The notes beneath the pieces are model-generated. The model worked only from the letters and a program-made list of their open reading frames with translations. It was not told where the DNA came from and made no database searches. The position numbers and the translations under genes were made by a program. This document shows positions 18,438-62,916 of a stretch of 64,000 nucleotides of DNA, in pieces. The stretch is from a virus. The DNA is taken from the IMG/VR virus record IMGVR_UViG_3300029489_000102; one strand, 5' to 3'. The stretch's first letter is position 1. The number at the start of each line of letters is the position of its first letter.

Positions 18438-18544
18438 ATGATCGGTGATTATTTGACCCTTTATGGCCTTGCTATCCTCCCCACATGACGGTAATATGCA
18501 CATACCGCAAGGGGAACAGAACAAGACAAAAGGAGATAAACACC
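18438..18544 (+). promoter_or_regulatory. conserved promoter/leader element, copy a (ATGATCGGTGA 18438; -35 TTGCTA 18469-18474; -10 TAATAT 18492-18497)
   Basis: Same architecture as the other copies. An inverted copy of the upstream box (TGTACACGATC) lies at 18417-18427. Confidence 0.6.
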
Positions 18545-19480
18545 ATGAACGATAAGACCAGAGAGCAGATCGAAGCCATGAAGATGCAGACCATCGGGGT
18601 CGAGGTTGAGATGAACAACATCACCCGCGAGAAAGCCGCCAGAAAGGTTGCCGAGTTCTTCGGGACGACCGCATGGTACGCAGCCAGCGAGTACGGGTAC
18701 ATGAGCTGGGCTTGCAAGGACCAGCAGGGCAGGGTTTGGAAATTCCAGCGAGACATCAGCATCCACGGACCGGAAGCTGAAAAGTGCGAGATGGTGACCC
18801 CCATCCTTACCTACGAGGACATCGAGACCTTGCAGGCAATCATCCGACTGCTCCGCAAGGCTGGCGCAAAGTCCAGCCCCAGTCGGGGATGCGGCGTTCA
18901 CATCCACATCGGCAAGGGCAACCACACCCCCAAGACCCTGCGGAATCTGGTCAACATCATGGCTGCCCACGAAGAACAGATCGGCAGAGCGATTCGCATC
19001 GATGCAGGCAGAACCGGACAGTATTGCCGAGTGGTCGACCCCCGATTCCTTGACCAGCTGAACAAGAGAAAGCCGACGACCATGACTGAGCTTGCCGACA
19101 TCTGGTACGCCAGCAACCACGCAAACTACGGCAGAACGGCACATTACAATGAAAGCCGATACCATATGCTGAACCTCCACGCCACCTTCACCAAGGGCAC
19201 GATTGAATTCCGGCTTTTCCAGTTTGCCGACCCCAGCGACGGCAAGCAGAACGGACTTCACGCCGGTGAGCTGAAAGCCTACATCCAGCTTTGCCTCGCA
19301 ATGAGCCAGCTTGCCAAGATGGTGAAGACCGCAAGCCCCAAGCCCCAGCAGACCGACAACGAGAAATATGCAATGCGGTGCTGGATGCTTCGGCTGGGCT
19401 TCATCGGGGACGAGTTCAAAACAGCACGGGAGATCCTTCTGCGGAATATGGAGGGCAACGCAAGCTGGCGCAACGCATAA
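18545..19480 (+). CDS. putative amidoligase (Amidoligase_2 / GS-like carboxylate-amine ligase family)
   Basis: IGVEVEM N-terminal strand and GCGVHIHIG motif are reminiscent of the phage amidoligase family. Genomic association with GGCT-like genes. Assignment from recalled family features, not a search. Confidence 0.55.
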   Translation: MNDKTREQIEAMKMQTIGVEVEMNNITREKAARKVAEFFGTTAWYAASEYGYMSWACKDQQGRVWKFQRDISIHGPEAEKCEMVTPILTYEDIETLQAIIRLLRKAGAKSSPSRGCGVHIHIGKGNHTPKTLRNLVNIMAAHEEQIGRAIRIDAGRTGQYCRVVDPRFLDQLNKRKPTTMTELADIWYASNHANYGRTAHYNESRYHMLNLHATFTKGTIEFRLFQFADPSDGKQNGLHAGELKAYIQLCLAMSQLAKMVKTASPKPQQTDNEKYAMRCWMLRLGFIGDEFKTAREILLRNMEGNASWRNA

Positions 19481-19504
19481 GCGCCGACTTGCACGGGCAC
19501 CTAT

Positions 19505-19526
19505 CGGGCGGGCAACCGCCCTTTAG
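19505..19526 (+). terminator. hairpin GGGCGGGCAACCGCCC + TTTA
   Basis: GC stem directly after the amidoligase-like gene. Confidence 0.45.
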
Positions 19527-32602: not shown

Positions 32603-32976
32603 GCAAGACCGTGAGTATCGACGGAATGGCAGAAGCCATCAACGAGGGCTTGCAGGAATATGCGAAGCTGGCATCCTCCGAGGTCAAACGAGCGGTTCGG
32701 AAATCGGCAAAGACGGTCAAGGAGGAAATCGAGGCCGGCGCGCCATCCCGGACCGGTCGGTATAAGTCGAGCTGGGTGGCGACCAAGCAGGAGGAATCCA
32801 GTCAGAGCCTTCAGATGGTCGTCCATTCCAAAGACCGATACCAGCTGACGCATCTTTTGGAAAAGGGCCACGCCAAGCGCGGCGGTGGGCGTGTGGCGGC
32901 AAGACCGCACATTGCTCCTGCCGAGCAGGAGGGGGTCGAGCTGCTCCAAAGCCTCATCGAGAAAGCACTGAAGTAG
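32599..32976 (+). CDS. HK97 gp10-family tail component
   Basis: ATGA overlap. ARPHIAPA motif and size. Ends with TAG used as a true stop. Confidence 0.65.
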   Translation: MSKTVSIDGMAEAINEGLQEYAKLASSEVKRAVRKSAKTVKEEIEAGAPSRTGRYKSSWVATKQEESSQSLQMVVHSKDRYQLTHLLEKGHAKRGGGRVAARPHIAPAEQEGVELLQSLIEKALK

Positions 32977-42313: not shown

Positions 42314-42317
42314 GAAG

Positions 42318-43103
42318 GTGATGCGTATGGGCTATTTGCCTGAGAAAAAGACAGTATCCCAGTTTGATTTGAAGGGCAGGTTTGCACGGCAGTATCTGTC
42401 CTTTGCCGGGAAGTCCAGCAAGGACTTCCTTTTATATTTGTCTGGACCCAGTGTGTACGATTCTCCGGCAGCGGATGTAGAAAGCACATCGGTCCCCGGC
42501 AGAAACGGAGACATCATCAGCGAGAATGCAAGGGCAGGTCGGCGGCGGTATCAGAATGTGGATATCAAGTATGAAGCGTTCTTCTTTAACGGTCTGCCCG
42601 CTAAGACCGCAACGGTCAAGTCGTGGCTGCTGTCTCCGGTCGGCTACCAGAAATTGCAGGATACCTATGACCCAGATTTCTTCCGGATGGCAGTTTGCAC
42701 CGAAGCGATGGAGTTCGATGTAACGGCGCAGAAAGCCGCAAAGATGGATCTGGTGTTCAATTGCAAGCCTCAGCGGTGGAGTGTGGAAGGACAGAGGACG
42801 GTACGGCTGGAAAGCCGGAGCAACCTCATGAACCCCTTCGCATTCCCGGCACAGCCCGTCTTCAAGGTCTACGGAGATTCGGGCGGTGTGCTGTATGTGG
42901 GCGATGAATCAATTACCATCCACAGCATTAAGGATTATGTCCTGCTGAACTGTGAGACGCACAATGCCTACAATGCGGGCGGCTTCTGCAATGAGACCAT
43001 CCTCTCGGATGATTTCCCGGAACTGCCGGCCGGAAAGACACAGATCGCATGGACGGGCGGTATCACAGCGGTGGAGGTGACTCCGCGCTGGTGGACGCTG
43101 TGA
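42318..43103 (+). CDS. distal tail protein (Dit)
   Basis: Position right after the tape-measure gene and size typical for siphovirus Dit. Confidence 0.65.
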   Translation: MMRMGYLPEKKTVSQFDLKGRFARQYLSFAGKSSKDFLLYLSGPSVYDSPAADVESTSVPGRNGDIISENARAGRRRYQNVDIKYEAFFFNGLPAKTATVKSWLLSPVGYQKLQDTYDPDFFRMAVCTEAMEFDVTAQKAAKMDLVFNCKPQRWSVEGQRTVRLESRSNLMNPFAFPAQPVFKVYGDSGGVLYVGDESITIHSIKDYVLLNCETHNAYNAGGFCNETILSDDFPELPAGKTQIAWTGGITAVEVTPRWWTL

Positions 43104-43121
43104 GGAAGGAGGTGGAGCGGG

Positions 43122-45062
43122 ATGATCCCTTGTCTGTATGCATCCATGGAGTCTAAGTTTGACAACAATGGCATCGGCAAGATGGCAGATGCACAGTCCT
43201 GCATCGTGACGGAAAAACGAAACGGCAGCTTTGAGCTGGAGATGGTCTACCCAGCAGATGGTATCCATGCGGATCAGCTGGAAGAAGGGAGCATCATCCT
43301 TGCAAAGCCATCCGACACAGGCAGATCGCAGCCGTTCCGTATCTACAAAATCGCAACGCCGATTGATGGCAAGCTGACTGTCAAGGCAAGGCACATCTCG
43401 TATCAGCTAAACTTTATTACGGTTTCTCCTTTTGCCACGACCGGCTGCACCGGTGCGCTGGCGGGGCTGGGAAACCACGCGGCATCCGAGTGCCCCTTTG
43501 AGGTCTGGACGGATATCTCCTCCAGCGCCTCTTTTCGGCTCTCGGTGCCGTCCTCTTTTCGGAACTGCCTCGGCGGTATCGACGGCTCGGTGCTGGACAC
43601 CTTTGGCGGAGAGTACGAGTGGGACCGATACACGGTCAAGCTCCATCATCACCGGGGCTCAGACCACGGCGTGCATATCGTTTACGGCAAAAACCTCATC
43701 GACTTCAAGATGGAGAAGAACATTGAGAGCGTCATCACGGGTGTACATCCGTACTGGCAGAATTCCGAGACCGGCGAGGTGACGGAGTTGCCGGAGAAGG
43801 TGGTGCTGGTGGAGCAGCGGTCAGTTCCGTACCAGAAGATCACGGTACTAGATTGCACTAGTGGATTTCAGGATAAGCCCACGGATGAGATGATGCGCTC
43901 TTTTGCACAGGATTATCTGAAGAACACCAGCCTGACCGAGCCGCAGGTGGATATCGACATCGACTTTATCCAGCTCTGGAATACCCCGGACTATGAGGAT
44001 GTGGTGGAAGCGGAGCAGGTGAGTCTGTGCGATACCGTCCATGTGTTTATTTCCAAGCTCGGCATCGAGGTCAGCTCCAAGGTGACCGAAACACAATACG
44101 ACTGTCTGCTGGAACGGTACGATGGCATTACGCTGTCGAACTCTACGGTCAGCAGCCGGAACTCGTCTTTGACTACAGCACTGAGCAACATCCGAAACAC
44201 AGCCAATGAAGCCTACAACACCGCGCTCCGTGTGGAAACCAGCATGGGTGAGCAGATCGGCGGCATTTCCGTGTCGATGGTCTATGACGGCACCCTGCTG
44301 GCCGGCCTGTTCGGTCTGCACTACCAGAACGTGACCGAGGTGAACGGCGAAACCGTGCGGTATGCCTTCAATGCCGGGTCACTGGCAAAGTCTACCTTTG
44401 CGTGGAAAAACAGCCCAGCGGGATTTTTCATTTCCACGGACGGCGGAAAAACATGGGGCTATGGCTGGGAAAAAGACGATTCCCCGGTCAAGACGGCGTT
44501 GCTGCTGGAGAACACTCTGCAGGAGCTGGATGAACGCTATAAGAAAGCCGGAGAACTGACTGAAGAACTGCTCGACCAGTTGGATGAGCGGTATAAGACG
44601 GCATCCGCCTTGTCGGAAGAACTCATCAAAAGCCTGGACGCACGCTACGGTACGGCAGATAAGCTGTCCGAGGTGCTGCTTGCACAGTTGGATGAACGAT
44701 ATAAAACCGCGTCTGCCTTGTCAGAAGAGCTGATTAAAAAGCTGGACGAGCGGTACGGAACAGCGGATAAGCTGTCCGAAACGTTGCTTGCGAAACTGGA
44801 TGAGCGGTATGCTCCGCCCATCTGTGCGCAGGAGGCAGCACCAAAGAATCCGAAAACGAATGCACTCTGGATCGATACAACCGCCCTGCGGCTGAAGCTG
44901 TGGGACGGAGAAATTTGGCAGACGGTAGGCTATGAGCCGACAACGCCTGAGCCCGATCCGGATACCCCGACAGAGGGAGGAGGCGAAGAAGATGGCAAAC
45001 AGGAAGGCGAAAGCAGTGGTACAGACAGCGGAGGAACCGGCGCAGGAGGCACTGGTGACTAA
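43122..45062 (+). CDS. tail-associated lysin / tail tip protein (Tal, prophage-tail endopeptidase family) with C-terminal heptad/20-aa repeats
   Basis: N-terminal gp27-like region conserved in Tal proteins. C-terminal LDERYKTASALSEELIKxLDxRYGTADKLSE repeats (44524-44815). Confidence 0.7.
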   Translation: MIPCLYASMESKFDNNGIGKMADAQSCIVTEKRNGSFELEMVYPADGIHADQLEEGSIILAKPSDTGRSQPFRIYKIATPIDGKLTVKARHISYQLNFITVSPFATTGCTGALAGLGNHAASECPFEVWTDISSSASFRLSVPSSFRNCLGGIDGSVLDTFGGEYEWDRYTVKLHHHRGSDHGVHIVYGKNLIDFKMEKNIESVITGVHPYWQNSETGEVTELPEKVVLVEQRSVPYQKITVLDCTSGFQDKPTDEMMRSFAQDYLKNTSLTEPQVDIDIDFIQLWNTPDYEDVVEAEQVSLCDTVHVFISKLGIEVSSKVTETQYDCLLERYDGITLSNSTVSSRNSSLTTALSNIRNTANEAYNTALRVETSMGEQIGGISVSMVYDGTLLAGLFGLHYQNVTEVNGETVRYAFNAGSLAKSTFAWKNSPAGFFISTDGGKTWGYGWEKDDSPVKTALLLENTLQELDERYKKAGELTEELLDQLDERYKTASALSEELIKSLDARYGTADKLSEVLLAQLDERYKTASALSEELIKKLDERYGTADKLSETLLAKLDERYAPPICAQEAAPKNPKTNALWIDTTALRLKLWDGEIWQTVGYEPTTPEPDPDTPTEGGGEEDGKQEGESSGTDSGGTGAGGTGD

Positions 45063-45741
45063 GTCGTTCACGGTGTTTCAGGACGTGGAACTGTCATTCA
45101 CAGAGAATCTGATCCCGACCCACATCCCGGTCAAGCAGTACGACAACCAAGCCCGAAAAGTGCGGTGTCGGCTGTATCAGAACTCGCTGGAGTATAAGGT
45201 CAGTAAGGACACCATCGTCAGCTACTCGGCTACTCGGCCGGACGGTGCAGTGTTTCAGTATTCCAGTGAGACCCGCCCGGACCTTGTGTTCGTAGATGAC
45301 GGTGCGGTCATCCTGACGGTCACATCCTTTATGACCGAAGTATACGGCAGGTTCCCGATTGACATCTACCTTCTGTCCGATGAGGGAGATGTGATCGGTT
45401 CGTTCAGTCTGGTGCTGAATGTGGCTCGTGCAGCGGTCAAGAACGGCAAGATCGCCACGCTGACCTATAAGCAGGCGTTGGATGCTGCCGCCAAGGGCAT
45501 CCTGGAATTCCTCATCACCGATGACGGATACCTCGTGATGCGCTCGGACGATAAGCTTGGACTGGCGCAGGGGTCTGTGTCCAGCACCATTGATAAAGTG
45601 GCGAAGGATATCGCGGAAGGCATGGTCACCTCGTCCATCAATATGGATGGACATTTGGTGTTCCAGAGCTGGGATGCGCTGGGTCTGATTTTTGAGATGG
45701 ACGATGAGGGACACCTCATCGTGAGATACAACGAGGCGTAA
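44992..45741 (+). CDS. hypothetical tail/baseplate protein
   Basis: ORF overlapping the Tal 3' end in another frame. Beta-rich composition. Confidence 0.45.
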   Translation: MANRKAKAVVQTAEEPAQEALVTKSFTVFQDVELSFTENLIPTHIPVKQYDNQARKVRCRLYQNSLEYKVSKDTIVSYSATRPDGAVFQYSSETRPDLVFVDDGAVILTVTSFMTEVYGRFPIDIYLLSDEGDVIGSFSLVLNVARAAVKNGKIATLTYKQALDAAAKGILEFLITDDGYLVMRSDDKLGLAQGSVSSTIDKVAKDIAEGMVTSSINMDGHLVFQSWDALGLIFEMDDEGHLIVRYNEA

Positions 45742-45758
45742 GCCGGAAAGGAACTAGA

Positions 45759-48700
45759 ATGGGAGAGTTTGTTGGCAAGCGAGTGGTACCGGACCATGTG
45801 GGTGTCTGGGACCAGAAGAAGACCTATGAACCCTTGATGATCATGCTGGACGGCGAGACCGGTGACAGCTATATCAGCCGTAAGGCTGTGCCTATCGGTA
45901 TTTCTCTGTCGGATGAGAGCTACTGGTCGCTGTGTGCTCATTATTCCGCACAGATGCGGAAGCTGGAACAGGATGTAGATGTGGATGTCCAGCAGATGCA
46001 CAGTGATGTTACGGCTGTCAAAAATGCCATGAGTCAGGAGTTCCAGGAGACCCATACGGCAATCAGCAAGGAACTGGATGATACGCACAAGGCAATCAGT
46101 CAGGAGCTGTCGGAAACGGAACAGCGTGTCAATGAGAATCTGGAGCAGACCAGTTCGGAGTTGACTGGCAAGGTCGAACAAGCCAAGTCCGACCTGAACA
46201 CCGGCCGGCAGGAACTGAAGGATGCCAAGGATACGCTGAACAAACGGATGGACAGCATTGCCGGGGGAAAGACCTCGGATGCGGAGATTCTGGATGCTCG
46301 CGTGGATGCGGACGGCAACACGCATGAGAATCTGGGTGCGCATATCCGCAGCGGTTTCGAGAGCGCACGGACAGACCAGGAAGAGGCTGTGAACCACATT
46401 GGGCGGATGGCTGCTGTCAGTGATGCCATGCGCACTGCGAATATGGTACACACGGTGGACTTCAGTGCCAGCAATACCTCTGGAGATGTCAAGGCAACAG
46501 CAGTTTCGCTGGGACATGGCGACCGGGCTGGTGTCATCATCAACGGTGCCTTGAAGGAAGGTGAGAATGATGTAAGTGTCCTGCGCTTTACGGAGCCCAT
46601 GGCATTCAAAGCGGGCACGCCATACACCGTTTTCATTGATGAGACTACCCCCAAGGTGGGGTATGGCATCTACTTCTATGAGGTGGGCACGGGAAACTGT
46701 CTGCAGGTTGGCGGTATCAACCGCGGCTTTACGCCGGCAAACACGAAGATTGCAACGGCTGTGTTCGACAACGGCGGTATGTTCCGTGCAGGCATCTATT
46801 CGACCAACTGTGAATTCGAGAATCATGAACTTCACCTGTACGTTGTGGAGGGCGAGTATACTCAGAGAGATTTCTTTGGGCTTTCTACAGTTGCTGATGT
46901 GTCGGGAAATGTAGCAGAAATCGCCTCTGTTCGAGATGAAGTGAGAAAAAACAATCTCATTGTCATGAAACAGGTGATTCTGAAAAATGAAGAAAATGAA
47001 CCCCTTTGGACATCGACTCCAGTTGGTGCGTTGAACCTCGGTGCAACCGTGCTGAACGGACAACTGGGACCGACTGCTGGAACCTATGCAGTCCAGATTT
47101 CCAGCCCGTTTATGCTGGATAAAGAGAAGGACTATACGCTCTTCCTGTTGGATGAGCGTAAGGATCTGGAATACTCCGTCTATCTGTTGGATGAGACCAC
47201 ATGGAAAGATGTCATGGAAAACGGCGCGACCCGTGCATTCAATGTCATTCACAGCCCGTGTGGTTTGATTCCGGCGCATCAGACCGGTAAGCATCAGCTG
47301 CGGATCTGGGTGCAGCAGGATACGGTGTTTGACAATCGTGCGATTCAGGTCTATCTGGTGGAAGGACGTTATTCGGAGAGCGAACTCCGCACCTATCTTC
47401 CGGCAAAAGAGGCATCCGCGGCCACGAAAGGCTTGATTGGTAATCTGAACGCACTCAACCGTATCAGTGATCCGCTGCGCCGGAACAACATGATCCGCAC
47501 CATCGATTTTCAGGCAAGCGCCTCTGACGGACAGGTTTGTGCAACGGCTGTGAGTTCGGGGGTTGCCTCCGGTACGGTCATCAATGGAAGCCTTGGTCCC
47601 AAGCAGGGAAGAAATACCCTGTATTTCGGAGAGTCCATCTGGCTCGACAGAACAAAAAAGTATACGCTGTACGTCCGGAGCGATGAAAGTATGCCATCTT
47701 GTGAGGTTTATCTCTATGGCAATAGCAAGAGTGGCTGTATGCAGGTGGATGGCCTCAATAAGGGCTTTAGTGTTCACGGAATTATCCCGGTGACGTTTAC
47801 TCCGGATGAAAGCGGTTACTATCGTCCGGGTATCTATACCAGCCAGGATTTGAATTTTCCAAATTGCGAGATGCACCTGTTTGTTCTGGAAGGAGTCTAC
47901 GCCTACGACACAGTTCGTGGCCTTGTGGAGTTCAACGACCTCAACGGGAGCTTTACGAGTCTGGCCGCTGTGCATGACAATGTCCGGAGCAAGAATCTGT
48001 TCCGAACGATCAACTATGGAGACTCGAATCCGCAGACAAATGCTAAGATTCAGATGATTGCGGACAGCGATATCGATCAGGCATCCGTGAAGATCGTGGG
48101 CAATATGGGTGGTACTCTGGCTCTGAACAGCATTCGCTGCACAACCCTTGTGCCGCTGACTTCCGGAAAAACCTATACGTTGCTTGTGCGTGAGGATGAA
48201 GATTGTCCCGCCCTTACGGTATTCCTCGGTGATGAAGTGACCTACGGCTCCATTCAGATCAATGGTGCAACAGTGTCCGTGAATACGAAGAACCGCCATG
48301 TGTACACCTTTACTGCTGATAAGGACTACTCCTGCCGTGCGCGTGTCGTATGCGATACGGCTACGACTTTTGACGGGCAGCATATCCGTGTATATTTGGT
48401 GGAGGGGGCCTATACCGAGCAGCAGATGCGCTCGTGGGCAGAGTATTCTGAACTCCTGCAGGTCAAGGTGGATGCAGACCAGAGGGTCCAGGTATTGTCT
48501 GACCGCGAGGATGCTCGATGGATTTCCACGCACAATGGCTTGGAAAATATCTTGACGGTGTCTGATCGAGCACGGATGAACAATATGGTGAAGACCATTG
48601 ATTCGGTGGTTCGCAGCAATGCCGGCGATGTGTCGGCAACGGCAACTGCCCTCGGCGTTTTGGATGGAGCGGGTATCATTGTCAATGGCCTGATGTCCAG

Positions 48701-50735: not shown

Positions 50736-50795
50736 ATGAATAAAAACGATAATATGAAAGAAATTTTCGGGGGGGGGGGTACTCCTGAAAGCTGA
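50736..50795 (+). other. mini-ORF (19 codons, MNKNDNMKEFSGGGGTPES) with GAAAGGAG RBS containing a G12 homopolymer
   Basis: Located in the AT-rich spacer between the two fiber genes. Confidence 0.3.
50768..50779 (+). repeat. homopolymeric G tract (12 G)
   Basis: cggggggggggggt read directly from the sequence. Potential slipped-strand length variation or a sequencing hotspot. Confidence 0.8.
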
Positions 50796-53532: not shown

Positions 53533-53557
53533 GGACGGAGCACCGTCCTATTTTTTA
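53533..53557 (+). terminator. intrinsic terminator GGACGG-AGCA-CCGTCC + TATTTTTTA
   Basis: 6-bp GC stem plus T-run. Confidence 0.65.
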
Positions 53558-53592
53558 TGCCCTGCAAAGGGCAGGAAAGGCAAGGTACAAGT

Positions 53593-54024
53593 ATGCAGAA
53601 TGTAATCGACAAACTCCAGTTTGCTTTTGCGGCACTGGGCGGTTTTCTCGGCTGGTTCTTCGGAGGCTTTGATGGCTTCCTCTACGCACTCATCATCTTT
53701 GTGGTGACCGACTACTTCACCGGTATCCTTGCGGCGGGCATCCGCAAGGAGCTGTCCAGCGAGGTGGGCTTTAAGGGCATTGCCAAGAAGGTGTGCATCT
53801 TCCTGTTGGTGGGCGTGGCGAATGTTATCGATACGCAGGTGCTTCAGAACGGCGCAGCGATTCGCACCGCTGTGATTTTCTTCTACCTGTCCAATGAAGG
53901 CCTGTCCATCCTGGAGAACTCTGCCGTAATCGGCATTCCCATCCCGGAGAAGCTGAAGGATATGCTGATCCAGCTGACCAACGAGAAGCATATCCCGGAG
54001 AAAGATGACGAAAAAGAAGGGTAA
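53593..54024 (+). CDS. holin (Phage_holin_4_1 / TcdE-like family)
   Basis: MQNVIDKL...LYALIIFVVTDYFTGILAAGIRKELSSEVGFKGIAKKVCIFLLVGVANVID: typical family pattern with two TM helices. Directly upstream of the lysin genes. Confidence 0.75.
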   Translation: MQNVIDKLQFAFAALGGFLGWFFGGFDGFLYALIIFVVTDYFTGILAAGIRKELSSEVGFKGIAKKVCIFLLVGVANVIDTQVLQNGAAIRTAVIFFYLSNEGLSILENSAVIGIPIPEKLKDMLIQLTNEKHIPEKDDEKEG

Positions 54025-54223
54025 CTATACAACTTTTCGCCATTTTCATTGTGTTTTATGAGAGGGAAATTTGGAGAACTGGGTACCAAATGCTGAATTT
54101 CAGTAAGCATAATAAGAGAAGTTTTCTGAAAAGTACCTCCCCAAAGCCAAAAAATCGTGCGCTTTATGAAGGAGTCTATTGGGAGAGGGCGACCTCTCCC
54201 TAATTTTAGATGGAGGAACGACT

Positions 54224-54883
54224 ATGAATGAATATCCTGCAAAGCTGAACACCGGCTATTATCGTGTTCGGACCGATTGGAACGATGACGCATCCCAGCT
54301 CGGTGCATATAAGCTGCTGGCAAATGCCAAGGCGAAGTGTGACGAGAACCCCGGCAGCCATGTTTTTGCCGAGGACGGCACGGTCATCTATCCGGCGGAT
54401 GAGCCCACGACCCGGGAAGAAACCGCTGAGGAGAAGCCTGTAATGGATCTCCCGGAAGAGGACAAGCCCAGCGATGATGCACCCGGCGATGGCGAAGAGG
54501 ACTTCCCGTCCGCAGAGCCACAGCCGGATGCCGTTGCTTTCGGTAAGCTGAAGACCCTGATGAACATCCGCAAGGAACCCAGTCTCGAAGCAGAGGTCGT
54601 GACTGTGTACCCGATGAACACCATCGTGGAGGTGCTGGAGGTCTGCGACAACTGGCTGAAGATCAAGTGCCCGGAGGCGGAGGACGGCATTGCCTATGTG
54701 CTGAACGAGGATGATGCCTATGTCTTTGTCGGCAGAGATGTGTACGAAGTCGTAGCAGGGGACAACCTGTGGCGCATCGCAGAGCGTAAGCTCGGCAGCG
54801 GTACCCACTACACGGACATCCGTGAGCTGAACGGCCTGACTTCCAATGCCATCCGAATCGGCATGAAGCTGCTTCTGCCCTGA
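54224..54883 (+). CDS. LysM-domain protein with N-terminal cell-wall-binding repeat shared with the endolysin
   Basis: C-terminal LysM (YEVVAGDNLWRIAERKLG...LNGLTSNAIRIGMKLLLP). N-terminal YYRVRTDWNDDASQLGAYKLLANAKAKCDENPGSHVF repeat also present twice in the 55750 ORF. Confidence 0.6.
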   Translation: MNEYPAKLNTGYYRVRTDWNDDASQLGAYKLLANAKAKCDENPGSHVFAEDGTVIYPADEPTTREETAEEKPVMDLPEEDKPSDDAPGDGEEDFPSAEPQPDAVAFGKLKTLMNIRKEPSLEAEVVTVYPMNTIVEVLEVCDNWLKIKCPEAEDGIAYVLNEDDAYVFVGRDVYEVVAGDNLWRIAERKLGSGTHYTDIRELNGLTSNAIRIGMKLLLP

Positions 54884-54951: not shown

Positions 54952-55737
54952 ATGGCATACACTAACAGTCCCTTAGTGGTTTATACGAACCTCAGCCCGA
55001 ACCATTCTGGGCAGCGGACACACAGCATCGACCGCATCACCCCGCACTGTGTGGTGGGGCAGTTGTCTGCGGAAAGTATCTGTGGCTGCTTCATCAGCCC
55101 GAGTCGTCAGGCAAGTTGTAACTACGGCATCGGCAAGGACGGCCGTGTGTCGCTCTGTGTCGAAGAAAAGAACCGGAGCTGGTGCTCTTCCAGTGCAGCA
55201 AACGATCAGCGGGCTATCACTATCGAGTGCGCCAGTGACCTGACCCACCCATACGCCATGAACAGTGCCGTCTACACTTCGCTTATCAAGCTCTGTACCG
55301 ACATCTGCAAGCGGAACGGTAAGACCAAGCTGCTCTGGCTGGGGGACAAGAACAAGACGCTGAACTATGCGCCGGCATCGGATGAGATGGTTCTGACCGT
55401 CCACCGCTGGTATGCGAACAAAGCCTGCCCCGGCGACTGGCTGTACAGCCGCCTCAGTGATCTGGCGGCCAAGGTAACGGCGGCACTGGGCACTCCTGTT
55501 GAATCCACTGGCTTACAGGCAGCTTCTTTGAAGGATATGGAGTCCGCAGAGGTTGTGACAAAGGTGGCCACGCTGTTTACCGCAAACCAGAAGCAGTCCG
55601 GCATCCTTGCCAGCGTGTCCATGGCGCAGTTCATTCTGGAATCCGGCTACGGCAAGTCCGAGCTGGCACAGAATGCCAATAACTGCTTTGGCATGAAGGC
55701 ATCACTTTCCGGGAACACCTGGTCGGGTTTTGCCTAG
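54952..55737 (+). CDS. endolysin part 1: N-acetylmuramoyl-L-alanine amidase (Amidase_2/PGRP) plus start of glucosaminidase domain, ending at in-frame TAG
   Basis: Amidase_2 motifs (ITPHCVV, AITIECA, HRWYANKACPGDW). Glucosaminidase start SMAQFILESGYGKSELAQNANNCFGMKA. Stop TAG 55735-55737. Confidence 0.8.
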   Translation: MAYTNSPLVVYTNLSPNHSGQRTHSIDRITPHCVVGQLSAESICGCFISPSRQASCNYGIGKDGRVSLCVEEKNRSWCSSSAANDQRAITIECASDLTHPYAMNSAVYTSLIKLCTDICKRNGKTKLLWLGDKNKTLNYAPASDEMVLTVHRWYANKACPGDWLYSRLSDLAAKVTAALGTPVESTGLQAASLKDMESAEVVTKVATLFTANQKQSGILASVSMAQFILESGYGKSELAQNANNCFGMKASLSGNTWSGFA

Positions 55738-55749
55738 GATGGGCATTCC

Positions 55750-56424
55750 GTGTATTCGATGAAAACCGGGGAGCAGAACACGGACGGCAGCTATGTAAGC
55801 ATTACGGCAGACTTCCGAAAGTACAGTTCCATTGAGGACTCTATCAACGACCATTCCGCTTACCTGCTGGGAGCTATGAACGGCAGCCAAAAGCGGTACG
55901 AAGGACTGGCAGGCTGCACTGACTACAAGAAAGCCGTGCAGATCATCAAGGACGGCGGTTACGCGACGAGCCTTGACTATGTACAGAACCTTTGCCGGAT
56001 CATTGAGCAGTGGAACCTGACCCAGTACGATGCGGCGGTAGCCACTACGCCCACTACGGCCTTGTACCGTGTGCGCAAGAATTGGCCGGATGCCGCATCC
56101 CAGAAGGGTGCGTTCCGTGACCTCGGTAACGCAAAAGCGTGTGCGGACAAGAACCCTGGCTATTCTGTGTTCGATGAGAACGGCAAGGTCGTCTATCCCA
56201 CCAGCACGGTGTTTCAGCCCTACACGGTCCGGGTGTCCATCTCTGACCTGCACATCCGCAAGGGCCCCGGCACGAACTACGGTTCCCGTGGTTTTACTGG
56301 CAAGGGTGTGTTCACCATTGTTTCGGAGGCAACAGGCAAGGGCGCATCCAAGTGGGGCTTGCTGAAATCCTATGCCAGCAAGCGTAACGGCTGGATCAGC
56401 CTCGATTACGTCAAGAAGGTCTAA
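55750..56424 (+). CDS. endolysin part 2: remainder of glucosaminidase domain + two cell-wall-binding repeats + SH3b-like domain (same frame as part 1)
   Basis: DGHSVYSMKTGEQNTDGSYVSITADFRKYSSIEDSINDHSAYLL continues the glucosaminidase fold. 55750 and 54952 share the reading frame; only the TAG separates them. Confidence 0.7.
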   Translation: MYSMKTGEQNTDGSYVSITADFRKYSSIEDSINDHSAYLLGAMNGSQKRYEGLAGCTDYKKAVQIIKDGGYATSLDYVQNLCRIIEQWNLTQYDAAVATTPTTALYRVRKNWPDAASQKGAFRDLGNAKACADKNPGYSVFDENGKVVYPTSTVFQPYTVRVSISDLHIRKGPGTNYGSRGFTGKGVFTIVSEATGKGASKWGLLKSYASKRNGWISLDYVKKV

Positions 56425-56530: not shown

Positions 56531-56665
56531 TGTCATATATGCTGCAATTCAGGCGTTCTGTCAGGCAGATAGTTTGTCGGTAATATGCCGATTTATCTGG
56601 GCGACAGAACTTGCTATTCAGCCATACATGCGGCATTATACGACTACCCCAAGGAGGATGACGCA

Positions 56666-57607
56666 ATGGAAATTGTAGTGAAACAGAAAAGGGCGGCGGC
56701 CTATTGCAGAGTCAGCACCGGCATGGAGTGTCAGGAAGGTTCCTATGAGATTCAGAAAAGCTACTTCACAGAGCTGCTCTCCAATAACCCCGATGAGGAA
56801 CTCGTAAAGGTCTATGCGGATGAAGGCAGCGGACGCAGTACGCAGGGTCGGCCGGAATTCCGACAGATGATTCAAGATTGCATGGATGGCAAAATCGACA
56901 TCATCTATACCAAGTCCATCTCCCGTTTCTCCCGAAATATGCTTGACTGTGTGACCGTGGTGCGTCAGCTGAAAGAGCTGGGCATCCCGGTCATTTTTGA
57001 AAAAGAGGGCATTAACACGATGGATGGCCAGAGCGAGCTGTTCTTCCACATCCTTGCCATCATTGCCGAGGAGGAGTCCAAGAGCATCGGTGAGAATGTT
57101 CGAGCAGGCATCGCCTATCTCCATGACCAGGGCATTCCGACCGGCCGTGTGACCTACGGCTTTCGCAGGGTCAACAAGCAGGGTGAATGGAGAATTGAAG
57201 AATCCGATGCCCGCCGTGTCCGCTATGCCTTTGACCAAGCGGCAAAAGGAGTCTGCTACGCAGATATCCGAGCTTGCTTGGATAAGATGGAGGATGAGGA
57301 AAATACCGGTGTGTCATGGTCTCAGAATCGAAATCGGCTACCCAATATGCTGAAAAATGTCGCATACATGGGGGATTACTGGACGGATTGCTACTACACG
57401 GCCTACGGCAAGAACGGCCACCGATACAGCAAGCGGAACAGGGGAGAACGCGCCCAAGTTCATCTGGAGGACCATCATGAAGGCATTGTCAGCAGAGAGC
57501 AGTTCGAGCGTGTGCAGACCATGATTCAGATGGGCTTGCTCCACTCCGGACGAAAAAAATACAATGATGAACAGCAGAAGGTCCTGAACGACCCCAAATG
57601 GCAATAA
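56666..57607 (+). CDS. serine recombinase (short, 313 aa; resolvase catalytic domain + recombinase domain, lacks long C-terminal zinc-ribbon/coiled-coil)
   Basis: AAYCRVSTGMECQEGSYEIQ (catalytic Ser), SISRFSRN, recombinase-domain motifs. ATG after AAGGAGGA. Confidence 0.8.
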   Translation: MEIVVKQKRAAAYCRVSTGMECQEGSYEIQKSYFTELLSNNPDEELVKVYADEGSGRSTQGRPEFRQMIQDCMDGKIDIIYTKSISRFSRNMLDCVTVVRQLKELGIPVIFEKEGINTMDGQSELFFHILAIIAEEESKSIGENVRAGIAYLHDQGIPTGRVTYGFRRVNKQGEWRIEESDARRVRYAFDQAAKGVCYADIRACLDKMEDEENTGVSWSQNRNRLPNMLKNVAYMGDYWTDCYYTAYGKNGHRYSKRNRGERAQVHLEDHHEGIVSREQFERVQTMIQMGLLHSGRKKYNDEQQKVLNDPKWQ

Positions 57608-57619
57608 GGAGAAAAGTAC

Positions 57620-59131
57620 ATGGAAATTACAGTAGAAAAGGTAGACACTGGGGTACAGAAGCTCGGCTTTCAGGCACTTAGCACCTTGAAAACAGTCCGC
57701 GTTGCAGTCTATGCCCGTGTCAGCACGGACCAGGAGATTCAGCTCCACAGCTTGGAGGAGCAGATGAAAGCCTTCCGCGCTAAGATTGCCCAGCACCCTG
57801 GCTGGATGTTGGTGGATGTCTACGCCGATGAGGGCATCAGCGGAACCAGCGTGAAAAAGCGTAAAGAGTTCTTGCGGATGATGGAGGATTGCGAGGCAGG
57901 CAAGGTCGATTATATCATGGCAAAAAGTATCTCTCGATTTGCCCGCAACACGGTCGAATGTCTGTCCTATGTGCGCCATCTTCAGAGCATCGGTGTCCAG
58001 CTTTACTTTGAAAAGGAAGGACTGGATACGGCAACGTCGGTGTCCGAACTGATTCTGACGGTCATGGCGGCTTTTGCACAGGAGGAAAGCCGTTCCATCT
58101 CCGAAAACCTGAAATGGGGCATTCGCAAGCGGTTTGAAAGTGGTGAGTCGCGCTGGACCAAGACCTATGGCTATCGGAAGACCAAGGACGGTGAAATTGT
58201 CATTGAACCGGACGAAGCTGCCATTGTGCGGATGATTTTCAAAATGTACCAGTACGGCATCCCCATGACGGACATTCTGGATGAGCTGACCTTTATACAG
58301 GCTCCTTCCGCAAGGGGCAAGCAGACGTGGAACAAGACCGCCCTTAAGTATCTCCTTGAGAACGAGAAGTACATTGGTGATATGCGGCTTCAGAAATGGG
58401 TCAGTGTTGACCATATTTCCCATAGGAGTGTCCGGAACGACTCGACTGTGATTCCGGTCTACAACGTCAGGAACCACCATGTTCCTATTATCGACCGCCA
58501 TACCTACCAGCAGGTACAGCGCATTATGGAACTGAAATCTCCGCATGGGGAGTACAGCCGGTATCCCTACTTCGATACAAACATTGTCTGCCCGCTGTGT
58601 GGGAAGAAGATGATTCCGAGGGTCATGAAAGTGAACAGCCACAAGCGCATCCTTGGCTGCTTTGATGTGGACGGCTGCCGTGGGTATGCGGTCAAAGGGT
58701 ATCTTGTGGATGCTGCCCTGCTGGAAGCCTACAACACCCTTGAAATCAAGGAAAAGAAGCGGACGGTAGCTATGCAGAGGATGCTGGAAATCAAGGCAGA
58801 GAGCCCGAAACTGGACACCGTCCAGTATTACTGGCTGGATGACTTGGTGGGGCACATTGAATTTAAACAGGACACCATGCGGGTGTTCTGGAAATGTGGT
58901 CTGGAGAGCGAGGTTGCTTTGAATGCATCCAAGGTTGAGGAACCGACCCATGTGGCGGAGCTTTATCGGAACTCGCTGGACCGTGCGCAGCGGAGCGAGA
59001 ACAAGCCGGTGAGCGTGGTGCGGGCTGATAAGAAGTCAGTGAATACGCGGGAGGCACAGCGTAATGCTGCCATGCAGACGGCAAAGAACCTCCGTGCCAA
59101 GGAGAATGGAGTAGCAGCAAATGATTATTAA
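57620..59131 (+). CDS. large serine recombinase (integrase-type, 503 aa)
   Basis: VAVYARVSTDQE (catalytic Ser), SISRFARN, recombinase domain, Zn-ribbon CPLCGKK...C, C-terminal coiled-coil. Confidence 0.9.
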   Translation: MEITVEKVDTGVQKLGFQALSTLKTVRVAVYARVSTDQEIQLHSLEEQMKAFRAKIAQHPGWMLVDVYADEGISGTSVKKRKEFLRMMEDCEAGKVDYIMAKSISRFARNTVECLSYVRHLQSIGVQLYFEKEGLDTATSVSELILTVMAAFAQEESRSISENLKWGIRKRFESGESRWTKTYGYRKTKDGEIVIEPDEAAIVRMIFKMYQYGIPMTDILDELTFIQAPSARGKQTWNKTALKYLLENEKYIGDMRLQKWVSVDHISHRSVRNDSTVIPVYNVRNHHVPIIDRHTYQQVQRIMELKSPHGEYSRYPYFDTNIVCPLCGKKMIPRVMKVNSHKRILGCFDVDGCRGYAVKGYLVDAALLEAYNTLEIKEKKRTVAMQRMLEIKAESPKLDTVQYYWLDDLVGHIEFKQDTMRVFWKCGLESEVALNASKVEEPTHVAELYRNSLDRAQRSENKPVSVVRADKKSVNTREAQRNAAMQTAKNLRAKENGVAANDY

Positions 59132-60335
59132 AAAGGTAATGCCAAAAATCCCAGTGGCAAAGAAACGTGTGGCCGCGTATTGCCGTGTCAGCACTTTTCG
59201 CAACGAGCAGGATGAAAGCTTTGAAACTCAGCAGAAGTATTACGAGGAGCTGATCCAAAGTCATCCCGACTGGGAACTGGTTAAGGTATATGCTGACCGG
59301 CATTCTGCTACACGAGTGAAAAATCGACCGGGCTTTCAGGAAATGGCGGCGGCCGCCGAAGCCAAGAAGCTGGATATTATCATTTGCAAGAGTATTTCCC
59401 GGTTTTCTCGGAACATGGTGGATTGCCAGCAGTATGCCAAATGGTTTAGAACGCTGGGGGTTACAATCATTTTTGAGGAACAAAATATCCGCACAGATGA
59501 TCCAACCTGTGATTTCGTCCTATCCATCTTGGCAGCAGTGGCACAGGATGAAAGTCATTCTATCAGTGAAAATGAAAAGGCTGCTTATGCAAGCCGATTT
59601 GCACGAGGTGAGTACAATCTCGGCAATAATCGTATTCTCGGCTACGACTGTGTGGATGGCGAGCTGGTTCCCAACAAGGACGCTTGGATTGTAAAGGAAG
59701 TATTCCGCAGATTCATCGAAGGCGAGAGCTATAGGCAAATCGCTAAAGGTTTGGAAGAGCTGGGGGCTCAATCGTTGCACAGTAAAAAGGGGTTTGGAGT
59801 AGAAACTCTCCGGTACATGGTTTCAAATGAAACCTATGTGGGTGACAAGCGGTTGCAGAAGAAAGCTCCGTTGGACTACCTGACCAAGAAGCCCAATCCG
59901 AATCAGAAGGTGGAATCCAATTATCTGTGGGATGACCATGAAGCAATCATAGATCGGGAGACATGGGATAAGGCACAGGAAATTCTGGAAAAACGAAAAG
60001 AACTGGCAAAGGTCGGTATTCATAAAACGAACAGGGAGCATCACTTCCTCTACGGCAAAGTATTCTGTGGAGAATGTGGTGCTCCCTTTTTGCGCCGGAC
60101 TTTGAAAGCTGCTGGCGGTTTCAAGACGCAAAGCACCTATAAAGCGTGGAACTGCCGAAACCGGCAAAAAGGAAAAGGCAATGAGCGATGCGGCAACCGC
60201 TTTATTAAGGAAGAAGAACTTATCGATGCAATCCTGCGAGAACTTGAGTGGCTGAACATGGATCAGGAACGGTTTGAAAAGGAAGTATCGAAGGTACTGG
60301 TATATCCAGACCATATTGAAGTTGAGAAAAACTGA
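59121..60335 (+). CDS. large serine recombinase (404 aa)
   Basis: VAAYCRVSTFRNEQ, SISRFSRN, recombinase domain, CGECG...C Zn ribbon. Confidence 0.9.
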   Translation: MIIKKVMPKIPVAKKRVAAYCRVSTFRNEQDESFETQQKYYEELIQSHPDWELVKVYADRHSATRVKNRPGFQEMAAAAEAKKLDIIICKSISRFSRNMVDCQQYAKWFRTLGVTIIFEEQNIRTDDPTCDFVLSILAAVAQDESHSISENEKAAYASRFARGEYNLGNNRILGYDCVDGELVPNKDAWIVKEVFRRFIEGESYRQIAKGLEELGAQSLHSKKGFGVETLRYMVSNETYVGDKRLQKKAPLDYLTKKPNPNQKVESNYLWDDHEAIIDRETWDKAQEILEKRKELAKVGIHKTNREHHFLYGKVFCGECGAPFLRRTLKAAGGFKTQSTYKAWNCRNRQKGKGNERCGNRFIKEEELIDAILRELEWLNMDQERFEKEVSKVLVYPDHIEVEKN

Positions 60336-60481: not shown

Positions 60482-60850
60482 ATGAAGCATGAACTTGAAC
60501 AGGTACATATTGAATCCTATGGATTGACTGGGCCAGAAGTGGTAGTTGCCGCAGCAATCAAAGTTTACTTGATGAATTTGCCATGGTCCGACGCGAAAAA
60601 GAAAATGGATGCAGTGATAAGCTTGGAGAGAGGGGCAGTGACGGTCGATGGGAGAACCCTGTCTGGTTTGGTGAACGATTCGGTAGAATACGCTCTGGGA
60701 GCAGTAGGCCAGAAAACTGAGCTTGCGCCAGAATTATGGCAGACAATGGAGGCCCAGCTTAAGTCGGTGAACGGATCGGTTACAGTTCAAACAGTAGCCA
60801 CAGGGCTGTTAGATTTCCTGTACGATTGCTGGACTTCAACTAAAAGGTAG
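60482..60850 (+). CDS. hypothetical protein
   Basis: ATG after GGGAGG. Upstream part of ORF 60383 looks non-coding. GC drops here. Confidence 0.4.
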   Translation: MKHELEQVHIESYGLTGPEVVVAAAIKVYLMNLPWSDAKKKMDAVISLERGAVTVDGRTLSGLVNDSVEYALGAVGQKTELAPELWQTMEAQLKSVNGSVTVQTVATGLLDFLYDCWTSTKR

Positions 60851-61536: not shown

Positions 61537-62085
61537 TTGGGACGAGTGCAAGAAGGACTTTTGACGCTGTATAGTGAGGTCGAATCATCGCCAGTCCGCT
61601 GGCTCTGGTATCCATATATTGCAATTGGAAAAATAACCTTGCTACAGGGAGACCCCGGTGATGGCAAGTCTACAATGATGATGAATCTGATTGCTGAAAT
61701 AACCACAGGAGGTGCCTTTCCTGACGGAAAACCATTGGAGCAACCACAGAGGGTTATCTACCAATGCTCAGAAGACGGGGTTGCGGATACGATAAAACCC
61801 CGTCTGGAAGAACAGGGCGCAGACTGCAGCAAAGTGGCATTTATCAATGAAGAAGTCAACAGTGGGCTGACACTCGATGATGAACGCATTAGGGATGCAA
61901 TCGTTGCGTTTCGACCGAGGCTTGTTGTGATTGACCCAATTCAAGCATACCTCTCCAGTGACTCCGATTTGCAGATTGCTGGAAAAGCAAGGCGGCTGAT
62001 GCAGCACCTTGGAATGTGGGCGGCTACCTATGATTGCGCCATTGTGCTGATAGGGCACTTGAACAAAAAGGAAGGCATATATCTT
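61537..62085 (+). CDS. AAA_25/RecA-like ATPase (RepA/primase-associated type), apparently 3'-truncated at ~62085
   Basis: WLWYPYIAIGKITLLQGDPGDGKST Walker A, LVVIDPIQ Walker B, GHLNKK. Past ~62085 the frame is antisense to the convergent paralogue. TTG/GTG start. Confidence 0.55.
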
Positions 62086-62744
62086 GCCGCCGGTGCTTCT
62101 TTGTTCGGTGTGCGTGTGATTGCAAGAATACTTCTTGCAGCACCCGCAATATCAATAGAACCGTTGGTACGATAAAGAGGGTTGGTATCTCTCATCTTGT
62201 TCATATGAGCGATAATCACGATGGCACAGCCTGTATTTTTTGCAACTGCAATCAAGTGATTAAACTCTGCCCTTGTTTCGTTGGCATTGTTCATTGAACA
62301 GTTCTCTCCGATATAGAAACTCATCGGGTCAAGAATTAAAAGTTTTGCGTGATACCTTTCGATTGCTTCAGCAATACGGTTATCTCCAAAGGATAAAGAT
62401 TTTTCATCTTCTTTGATGAAGATAAGATTTTCTCCGTTCCCACCGGCAGAGTTAAAACGGGGGACTACCGTATCGTCTGCATCATCTTCCGTTGTCTGAT
62501 AGATGACTGTCATAGGCTCTGTTTCTTCTTCGGTAAAGGGGAGAGGTTCTCCCTTTGAGAGCAGGGCGGCTATGGAAAGCATTAACTTGCTTTTCCCATC
62601 GCCAGGATCGCCCTGCAAGAGCGTAACCTTGCCGAACGGAATATACGGATACCACAGCCATTTCACTTCTTTCGGTTCAATCTCACTTGCCTTGATAACT
62701 TCAAGAGGTACATTTACATTCATTTCATTTTCCATCTGCTTCAT
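62028..62744 (-). CDS. AAA_25/RecA-like ATPase paralogue (minus strand)
   Basis: KWLWYPYIPFGKVTLLQGDPGDGKSK, LLILDPMS, AHMNKMRDTNPLYRTNGSIDIAGAARS. About 40% GC. Confidence 0.65.
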   Translation of the reverse strand: MKQMENEMNVNVPLEVIKASEIEPKEVKWLWYPYIPFGKVTLLQGDPGDGKSKLMLSIAALLSKGEPLPFTEEETEPMTVIYQTTEDDADDTVVPRFNSAGGNGENLIFIKEDEKSLSFGDNRIAEAIERYHAKLLILDPMSFYIGENCSMNNANETRAEFNHLIAVAKNTGCAIVIIAHMNKMRDTNPLYRTNGSIDIAGAARSILAITRTPNKEAPAARYMPSFLFKCPISTMAQS

Positions 62745-62916
62745 CTTTCTTCGTTCTCCTTTTCGATAAATACTTAGGGCAAAGCACCACAATACAGCGG
62801 AAACTCTGCTTACAATCATTACTACATTTTCTGCAAGGTTCGTTGTAGGTAATGCGATTTCTTTCATTCAGAAACAATGCCCACTCTTGTTTCCGCTTCT
62901 TGCTCATTCTCGGCAT
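62725..62916 (-). CDS. small zinc-finger protein (CxxC...C...C), hypothetical
   Basis: MPRMSKKRKQEWALFLNERNRITYNEPCRKCSNDCKQSFRC. The ORF's upstream extension is probably not coding. Confidence 0.35.
   Translation of the reverse strand: MPRMSKKRKQEWALFLNERNRITYNEPCRKCSNDCKQSFRCIVVLCPKYLSKRRTKKDEADGK

Follow-up and report, generated by a model that had tools for sequence, protein, structure and literature searches.

An amber allele dividing the endolysin of a widespread gut phage clone, and a conserved stop site in the helicase of the same phage

Introduction

Several catalytic domains of Gram-positive phage lysins, such as CD27L 1-179 and CHAPk, are lytic without their binding domain. Gut phages of the kind that Ivanova in 2014 and Borges in 2022 dealt with reportedly read TAG as glutamine, with an enrichment of this codon in late and lysis genes. 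Stop codons can also be bypassed by the translating ribosome, as described for T4 gene 60 and for synthetic "stop-hops" (Weiss et al. 1987, reviewed in PMC5009743); natural stop-hops, by contrast, are not among the known cases according to this 2016 recoding review, which has them from synthetic constructs only. Here, we analyzed a stretch of viral DNA of 64,000 nucleotides (IMG/VR virus record IMGVR_UViG_3300029489_000102, one strand, 5' to 3', hereafter referred to as the window), in which the gene of a bifunctional endolysin is divided by an in-frame TAG. An earlier note, made from the letters of the window, had drawn attention to this codon.

We found the TAG in the lysin to be an ordinary nonsense allele, neither the mark of an alternative code nor an error. 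Its origin, its frequency and its likely consequence for lysis are described below, together with a second internal stop, a TGA in the SNF2 helicase gene of the same window, for which another explanation is needed.

Results

An amber codon within the glucosaminidase domain

The amber codon, TAG at 55735-55737 on the plus strand, lies in frame inside the GH73 domain of an endolysin of the Amidase_2 plus GH73 type. The locus is composed of the following features:

54952-55737, plus strand: truncated endolysin open reading frame (ORF) of 261 amino acids (aa), with Amidase_2 at nucleotides (nt) 55021-55437, a linker, and the start of GH73 at nt 55573-55698
55735-55737, plus strand: amber codon, derived from TGG (Trp262) via G>A at 55736
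55738-56424, plus strand: in-frame continuation of 228 codons, with the remainder of GH73 at nt 55756-56019, a SPOR-like repeat, and a weak SH3_3 match at nt 56245-56415

The ORF 54952-55737 and the next 228 codons, which end with TAA at 56422-56424, share one reading frame, the codon context of the stop being AAC ACC TGG TCG GGT TTT GCC TAG GAT GGG CAT TCC GTG TAT TCG ATG. This confirmed the coordinates of the earlier note, in which an ORF ending with TAG at 55737 is continued in the same frame by one at 55750-56424 with a GTG start.

According to Pfam, the upstream part contains a complete Amidase_2 domain (residues 24-162, profile positions 3-131 of 131, E 2.9e-15) and in addition matches positions 3-44 of the Glucosaminidase profile (E 5.2e-12), while the downstream part matches positions 50-123 of the same profile (E 1.8e-15) and, weakly, SH3_3. 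The break in the profile falls between positions 44 and 50, which puts the stop within a single domain, and the claim that the TAG splits the glucosaminidase domain holds. Alignment to solved structures (Listeria Auto 3fi7, FlgJ 2zyc, and others) gave an extent of approximately residues 205-362 for GH73. On the basis of the alignment to Auto 3fi7 and FlgJ 2zyc, E230 in the motif ILESGYG (nt 55639-55641) is located before the stop and E274 in the motif KTGEQ (nt 55771-55773), which aligns with the beta-hairpin KTWEY of Auto, after it. We take these to be the two catalytic residues of GH73, as in Auto and FlgJ. A GH73 domain with both acidic residues on one chain is present in the TGG allele (protein P0121) and absent in the TAG allele. 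Neither part of the lysin holds a complete GH73 active site, and the amidase domain is whole; the 261-aa product is devoid of wall-binding modules and carries a GH73 stub of 57 residues.

The stop replaces an invariant tryptophan

Orthologue alignment identified the residue in place of the stop as tryptophan. It occupies the aligned position in 120/120 best protein homologues (75-96% identity, 490-493 aa), among them P0023, a Faecalibacterium prausnitzii protein according to its NCBI name, and is encoded by TGG in 80/80 orthologous loci from species-representative genomes of Clostridia. Given Trp in all 120 and TGG in all 80 relatives, W262* is the derived state and arose by a single G>A transition at 55736. 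The earlier note had envisaged a pseudogene and, alternatively, a lysin naturally organized as two genes. The former named the right class of lesion, a nonsense change from TGG to TAG at Trp262; as for the latter, neither a stop nor a gene boundary was found at the Trp262 position in any of the 200 orthologues examined (120 protein homologues and 80 genomic loci). Other internal stops are present in 5/80 orthologous prophage lysins, showing that lysin decay of this sort is common.

The ancestral base was also encountered in loci L011-L016, which have G at 55736 and are otherwise the same element. Exact 25-mer scans yielded no match in the GTDB species representatives, three matches in IMG/VR, all of them TGG and in relatives 91-95% identical, and three matches in JGI metagenomes.

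The amber allele dominates a young clone

The exact 261-aa product is present in 873 index blocks of the assembly collection, and the two halves of the lysin were located on ~480 and ~530 contigs (NCBI, JGI, ENA, Logan). The Trp version P0121, in an otherwise identical element, was detected on 8 contigs only. All loci retrieved via the truncated product or the neighboring GDSL gene show the split into 261 and 224 aa; these are L001-L010 and L191-L194, representing 13 distinct contigs from separate samples, as L191 is the same contig as L001. The earlier note had allowed for a sense codon in the reads. Hundreds of independent assemblies carry the TAG, and the recurrence of the same codon across different projects and assemblers leaves practically no room for a sequencing or assembly artefact.

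Over 17,128 bp, the amber carriers are 99.755-99.971% identical to the window, and an identity of at least 99.75% over 17 kb marks them as a single young clone. In the table of single-nucleotide polymorphisms (SNPs), linked synonymous differences at 55953, 55962, and 55986 are common to most of the TGG carriers, and in L013 the TGG occurs on a local haplotype resembling the amber one; this SNP pattern, L013 included, fits a recent origin of the TAG on an amber-like haplotype. A site-by-site comparison of 10 amber loci (L001-L010) revealed zero substitutions in 55738-56424, the clone being too young to measure selection downstream of the stop. Rare variants in the GH73 stub affect E230 and G234 (P0148, P0149); they are anecdotal.

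Two further loci combine the TAG with a diverged background. L195, a Logan contig of 24 kb (ERR13958171), matches the window with 77-97% identity as far as ~55,400 and is 100% identical to the amber clone from there to 62,079, through the recombinase module. Its join falls inside the amidase domain of the lysin, with the tail, GDSL, holin, and SH3-LysM region on the diverged side. In L024 (ERZ1027273 NODE-5306), an identical block of 530 bp including the TAG is embedded in a lysin of ~78% identity. Independent recurrence of the same TAG was considered for both and rejected, as their blocks are 100% identical to the clone, so that they represent recombinants or chimeras. A rearranged amber copy was found in L009 (ERZ1309553 NODE_223), which lacks the counterpart of window 39440-45995 and whose sequence switches beyond 59589 to the plasmid-like genes RepA_N, ParA, ParB, and DUF3991.

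A conserved stop within Walker A of the SNF2 helicase

The earlier note had combined the divided lysin with a lesion in the helicase gene and regarded the latter as a second sign of a defective prophage. The helicase locus consists of two parts:

2113-2208, plus strand: first ORF of the SNF2 helicase, 31 codons, MKFIPHDYQRYCTEYIKTHPIAALFLDMGLG, ending with GGC at 2203-2205 and TGA at 2206-2208
2209-3495, plus strand: helicase body with SNF2-rel_dom and Helicase_C, starting with GGA at 2209-2211 followed by AAA ACC; the next ATG is at 2248

The TGA lies within the Walker A motif, which reads GLGKT in canonical relatives and GLG*GKT in the window, and is followed in frame by GGA AAA ACC GTC, the beginning of GKTVITL. 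A frameshift between the genes of 415 and 238 aa was rejected as the interruption, as the 415-aa protein already has Helicase_C and the true interruption is located upstream, at 2206-2208.

The stop was found in 5/5 other carriers examined. Of 80 helicase relatives from IMG/VR, with 61-99% identity in the first 96 residues, 44 carry a stop at the exact site (37 TAA, 7 TGA) and 35 the plain GLGKT; the remaining one (L184) has Leu (CTC) at the aligned position and lacks the expected motif. Each of the 45 interrupted genes, the one of the window included, has one internal stop and a total of 449-461 codons, compared with 448-464 codons in the uninterrupted genes. On the helicase tree, genes with and without the stop are intermingled, with pairs of interrupted genes down to 59% identity. 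The ratio of nonsynonymous to synonymous polymorphism (pN/pS) amounts to 0.155 before the stop and to 0.12, at a pS of 0.57, in the 13 codons (33-45) that separate the stop from the next ATG; these low values on both sides indicate that both helicase ORFs are under purifying selection. Across a large family of phage helicases the stop is thus conserved and selected, and it is not a lesion. With the TGA at 2206-2208 no evidence of decay and the other 64 called genes intact, the earlier step from the two stops to a defective prophage is not supported.

Spacing classes and a candidate translational hop

Pattern scans of IMG/VR revealed the succession of a Gly codon, a stop, 0-6 nt, and a second Gly codon at the same site in at least 287 phage SNF2 genes, when the frame of the first Gly codon (take-off) had to be open upstream for at least 28 codons and that of the second one (landing) had to hold a body of 350 codons or more. 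These genes comprise at least 215 unique sequences, forming at least 114 clusters at 90% identity and at least 33 at 70%. Sorted by the shift from take-off to landing, they fall into the classes +5 (at least 106 genes), +6 (140), +7 (21), +8 (4), +9 (10), +10 (5), and +12 (1). Examples from named phages are:

Ruminococcus phage NatCom_38182: GGT TGA AAA GGC AAA ACA, shift +9
Erysipelothrix phage phi1605: GGT TA GGA AAG ACA, shift +5, ORFs in different frames
Streptococcus phage Javan422: GGC TGA G GGC AAA ACA, shift +7, ORFs in different frames

In the +5, +7, +8, and +10 classes both ORFs are intact and lie in different frames, which excludes read-through as the general mechanism at the helicase site. 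Tandem duplication of TTAGG, or DNA slippage, was rejected as the general source of the +5 class, as the Leu codon varies (TTA 64, TTG 20, CTC 4, CTT 1). The codon usage at the site is restricted. Among the matches listed, take-off occurs at GGT in 180 and at GGC in 33 of 215 unique genes, landing at GGA in 117, at GGC in 64, and at GGT in 34, and the codon preceding AAR ACN is always GGN. The equivalent codon of uninterrupted genes is GGC in 27/34 and GGT in 1/34; the contrast between GGT and GGC at take-off has a Fisher p of 5e-21, calculated without correction for phylogeny. No conserved stimulatory RNA structure was found flanking the +6 site.

Based on these patterns, we propose that the peptidyl-tRNA-Gly would detach at GGY, with the stop in the A site, and then re-pair at the next GGN. 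Such a hop would restore the canonical GLGKT in every class, with the junction …LDMGLGKT…, and may thereby be the one mechanism that joins both ORFs in all of them. In the window, matched Gly codons flank the stop (GGC TGA GGA), and we consider the helicase site a candidate for a natural translational stop-hop. The literature searched, including that published after the 2016 review, contained no prior description of this stop site.

Consequences of the truncation for lysis

For the lysin, we conclude that a recent G>A transition turned Trp262 (TGG) into an amber stop in a bifunctional endolysin, which is predicted to combine the activities of an N-acetylmuramoyl-L-alanine amidase and a GH73 glucosaminidase with C-terminal wall-binding modules. 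Reading of the TAG as a normal stop would give rise to a 261-aa protein with a whole amidase domain and an unusable GH73 stub, and the second half of GH73 with the wall-binding modules would either not be made or be made at a low level via re-initiation at GTG 55750. The allele would have arisen on one phage haplotype and now resides in nearly all sampled copies of the young clone, with the ancestral TGG persisting at low frequency. We lean, if by a modest degree of confidence, toward the view that the truncation is tolerated and the phage still functional: the amidase domain alone might still open the wall after the holin has acted, leaving a phage that is attenuated and not dead. Tolerance is suggested by the intact state of the rest of the genome, with no other clone-wide lesion, by the occurrence of the near-identical clone across many unrelated cohorts, and by the TAG segment also being found on the mosaic backbones L195 and L024. 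The helicase stop, being a conserved feature, is removed from the evidence for decay and counts toward tolerance as well.

Several points weigh against a functional phage. Trp262 is invariant in 200 relatives, so that the loss of everything beyond it should cost fitness. Other lysins do need their binding domain, e.g., those of the Listeria phages, Ply118 and Ply500. L195 and L024 may be metagenome assembly chimeras, the coverage of L024 being ~3x. Finally, vertical inheritance in a successful host lineage may also account for the spread of the clone.

An alternative is a lysis-defective prophage, in which useful lysin function is lost, virions are released inefficiently, and the high frequency is owed to a successful host lineage, by shared descent or by selection in it (domestication, or protection from induction-triggered lysis). 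We consider this possible, with a chance clearly below even. It would agree with the loss of an invariant Trp, with the split of the GH73 active site, and with a truncated product lacking any wall-binding module, and the internal stops in 5/80 orthologous prophage lysins offer precedents. The intact amidase domain and the intact remaining genome speak against it, and the second lesion cited for it, that of the helicase, is not a lesion. Sporadic splits of the GDSL gene (L007, L012) and of a recombinase gene (L005, L013, L193) may be taken as further decay, but such sporadic lesions occur equally in TGG carriers; the stub variants at E230 and G234 would point in the same direction on an anecdotal level only. 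Moreover, an identity of at least 99.75% across unrelated cohorts is more easily reached by recent horizontal spread.

Going beyond tolerance, the amber allele might have been favored, if an amidase-only lysin, with or without a separate binding fragment, or a damped lysis raised the fitness of phage and host. This is a rather doubtful proposition, which would explain the near-replacement of TGG and the presence of the TAG on mosaic backbones.

A two-component lysin, composed of the amidase fragment and a C-terminal fragment initiated separately at GTG 55750 or ATG 55759 for wall binding, appears improbable. The G>A change at 55736 does create an AGGA (55736-55739) 10 nt upstream of GTG 55750, and gene callers place a gene of 224 aa at this GTG in every carrier. 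Internal starts that give free binding domains are known from CTP1L, CD27L, and Lys170; there, however, the free domains pair with a full-length chain bearing the same domain, which is missing here. Furthermore, the C-terminal fragment would start within a folded domain, and none of the 120 homologues and 80 loci is organized in this way.

Still less probable, and hardly to be expected, is a decoding of the TAG by a suppressor tRNA, by read-through, or by a recoding that delays lysin synthesis, each resulting in the full-length enzyme. Of 65 genes mapped on the window by the gene calls of the collection, the standard code gives well-formed reading frames for 64, in line with the earlier judgment that global recoding is unlikely. 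Their stops are TGA in 43, TAA in 17, and TAG in 4 cases including the lysin; the rarity of TAG as a terminator (3/63 other genes) and the apparently non-standard decoding at the helicase stop of the same genome could be cited in favor of decoding. The three other genes ending with TAG are a PemK-like gene (6399), the HK97-gp10-like gene at 32976, correctly named in the earlier note as an instance of a genuine TAG stop, and a gene at 60850. Among called genes, an in-frame TAG interrupts the lysin only. With this single in-frame TAG in the element, other genes intact, and a normal coding density in code 11, global or late-gene recoding of TAG was rejected. ARAGORN detected no tRNA gene in the window or in nine loci, together ~73 kb of the element; this search began ~7.7 kb to the left of the window and reached ~2.4 kb beyond its right end, while the host genome and the leftmost ~12 kb of the element lay outside it. 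Amber suppression, as put forward in the earlier note, is thus disfavored by the missing tRNA gene and by the invariant Trp that the stop replaces. The codon is, in addition, not conserved, as relatives have TGG, and it is polymorphic within the clone. A hop of the kind proposed for the helicase was likewise rejected for the lysin: the flanks in GCC-TAG-GAT do not form a matched pair of take-off and landing codons, and the nearest GCN lands out of frame.

The phage element and its variation

The element is a temperate phage of ~87 kb of the Candidatus (Ca.) Heliusvirales type, and its host is probably Faecalibacterium or a close relative. One carrier contig, "vOTU_11881", has a length of 87,055 bp. 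The structural genes comprise TerS/TerL, portal, ClpP-type protease, capsid, tape measure, and tail, followed in our grouping by the late and integration genes for a CotH-like protein, a GDSL lipase, the holin, the SH3-LysM protein, the lysin, and three tandem serine recombinases. This gene content fits the marker set of Candidatus Heliusvirales, which according to one preprint are found in 95% of gut metagenomes. No close deposited phage was found in INPHARED, where the best matches to the lysis region reach 70-75% nucleotide identity.

The lysin sits in a lysis cassette, with the holin gene (53557-54024) nearby in the same orientation. Its neighbors are:

53557-54024, plus strand: holin (Phage_holin_4_1), first gene of the lysis cassette, Pfam E 9.1e-44; start according to the gene caller at 53593
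54179-54883, plus strand: wall-binding protein with SH3_3 and LysM, Pfam E 4.5e-11 for LysM and 6.5e-8 for SH3_3
56585-60335, plus strand: three tandem large serine recombinases (integration/inversion module) directly 3' of the lysin, Pfam Resolvase and Recombinase (and Zn_ribbon_recom)

The SH3-LysM protein (54179-54883) holds three wall-binding modules and, by Pfam, no recognizable catalytic domain. Its N-terminus and the C-terminus of the lysin (56050-56200) have a SPOR-like repeat in common, with the shared motif YRVR..W.DA.SQ.GAF/Y...NAK..CD.NPG..VF.E.G.V.YP.

Variation among the carriers was observed at several further positions. The window diverges from every other carrier at ~62079 (region 61537-62867). 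There, an AAA_25 gene on the plus strand, of 212 aa in the window and 289-320 aa elsewhere, meets a second AAA_25 gene on the minus strand (62028-62867) tail-to-tail, at the same profile end position. This junction could be an inversion or recombination of homologous copies, possibly via the adjacent serine recombinases, or an assembly chimera. Approximately 25 clustered SNPs in window 45894-46565, the N-terminal part of the 1654-aa CotH-like gene, are common to L006, part of L008, L011, and L012 and absent in other carriers; the cluster resembles a recombination tract, and the gene is probably a receptor-binding or tail-fibre-like one. The G-run at 50769-50771, between the CotH-like and GDSL genes, varies in length, with L001 as in the window and the other covered loci 1-3 G shorter. 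Gene splits affect the 872-aa GDSL gene, which is divided into ~451 and 428 aa in L007 and L012, and the middle serine recombinase (503 aa), divided into 259 and 227 or 259 and 201 aa in L005, L013, and L193; such sporadic splits are present in both TAG and TGG carriers. The ends of the Amidoligase_2 gene (window 18485-19519) differ between the window, L017, and L018.

Discussion

Hundreds of assemblies have the lysin called as two genes, and the cause is a true nonsense allele, which calls for caution in annotation. If the phage is active, the amidase domain alone would suffice for lysis of the host; if it is inactive, a lysis-dead prophage would be remarkably widespread. By itself, the lysin stop is an ordinary event, unusual only in dominating a very widespread gut phage clone. 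The helicase site is much more interesting. If the proposed hop is true, it would be the first natural case measured against the 2016 review (PMC5009743), and a short hop that is widespread. In that case, annotations of the helicase, a hallmark gene of phages of the Ca. Heliusvirales type, would routinely be wrong in showing it as fragments.

Compared with described systems, the lysin allele resembles nonsense and pseudogene alleles of prophage lysis genes in being a single-base premature stop in a conserved lysin whose relatives are intact. Unlike these, it is not private but dominates a widespread near-identical clone, and its upstream amidase domain is whole. With modular Gram-positive endolysins such as CD27L 1-179 and CHAPk of LysK, it shares an N-terminal catalytic domain without binding modules; those truncations were engineered and assayed, whereas the present one is natural and retains a GH73 stub of 57 residues. 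Like TAG-recoded gut phages, the element carries an in-frame TAG in one of its lysis genes; it differs from them by having one TAG only, at a Trp and not a Gln position, by the lack of any suppressor tRNA found, and by a stop that is not conserved. In contrast to naturally split endolysins, no orthologue is split at this position, and the cut lies within a domain.

The helicase site, in turn, finds its closest counterparts in T4 gene 60 and the synthetic stop-hops, with which it has in common a Gly take-off codon directly before a stop, a Gly landing codon downstream, and two ORFs, often in different frames, that would join into a canonical protein. It differs from T4 gene 60 in its gap of 2-9 nt instead of 50 and in that no conserved RNA structure was found, and from both in its location inside the Walker A motif of an SNF2 helicase.

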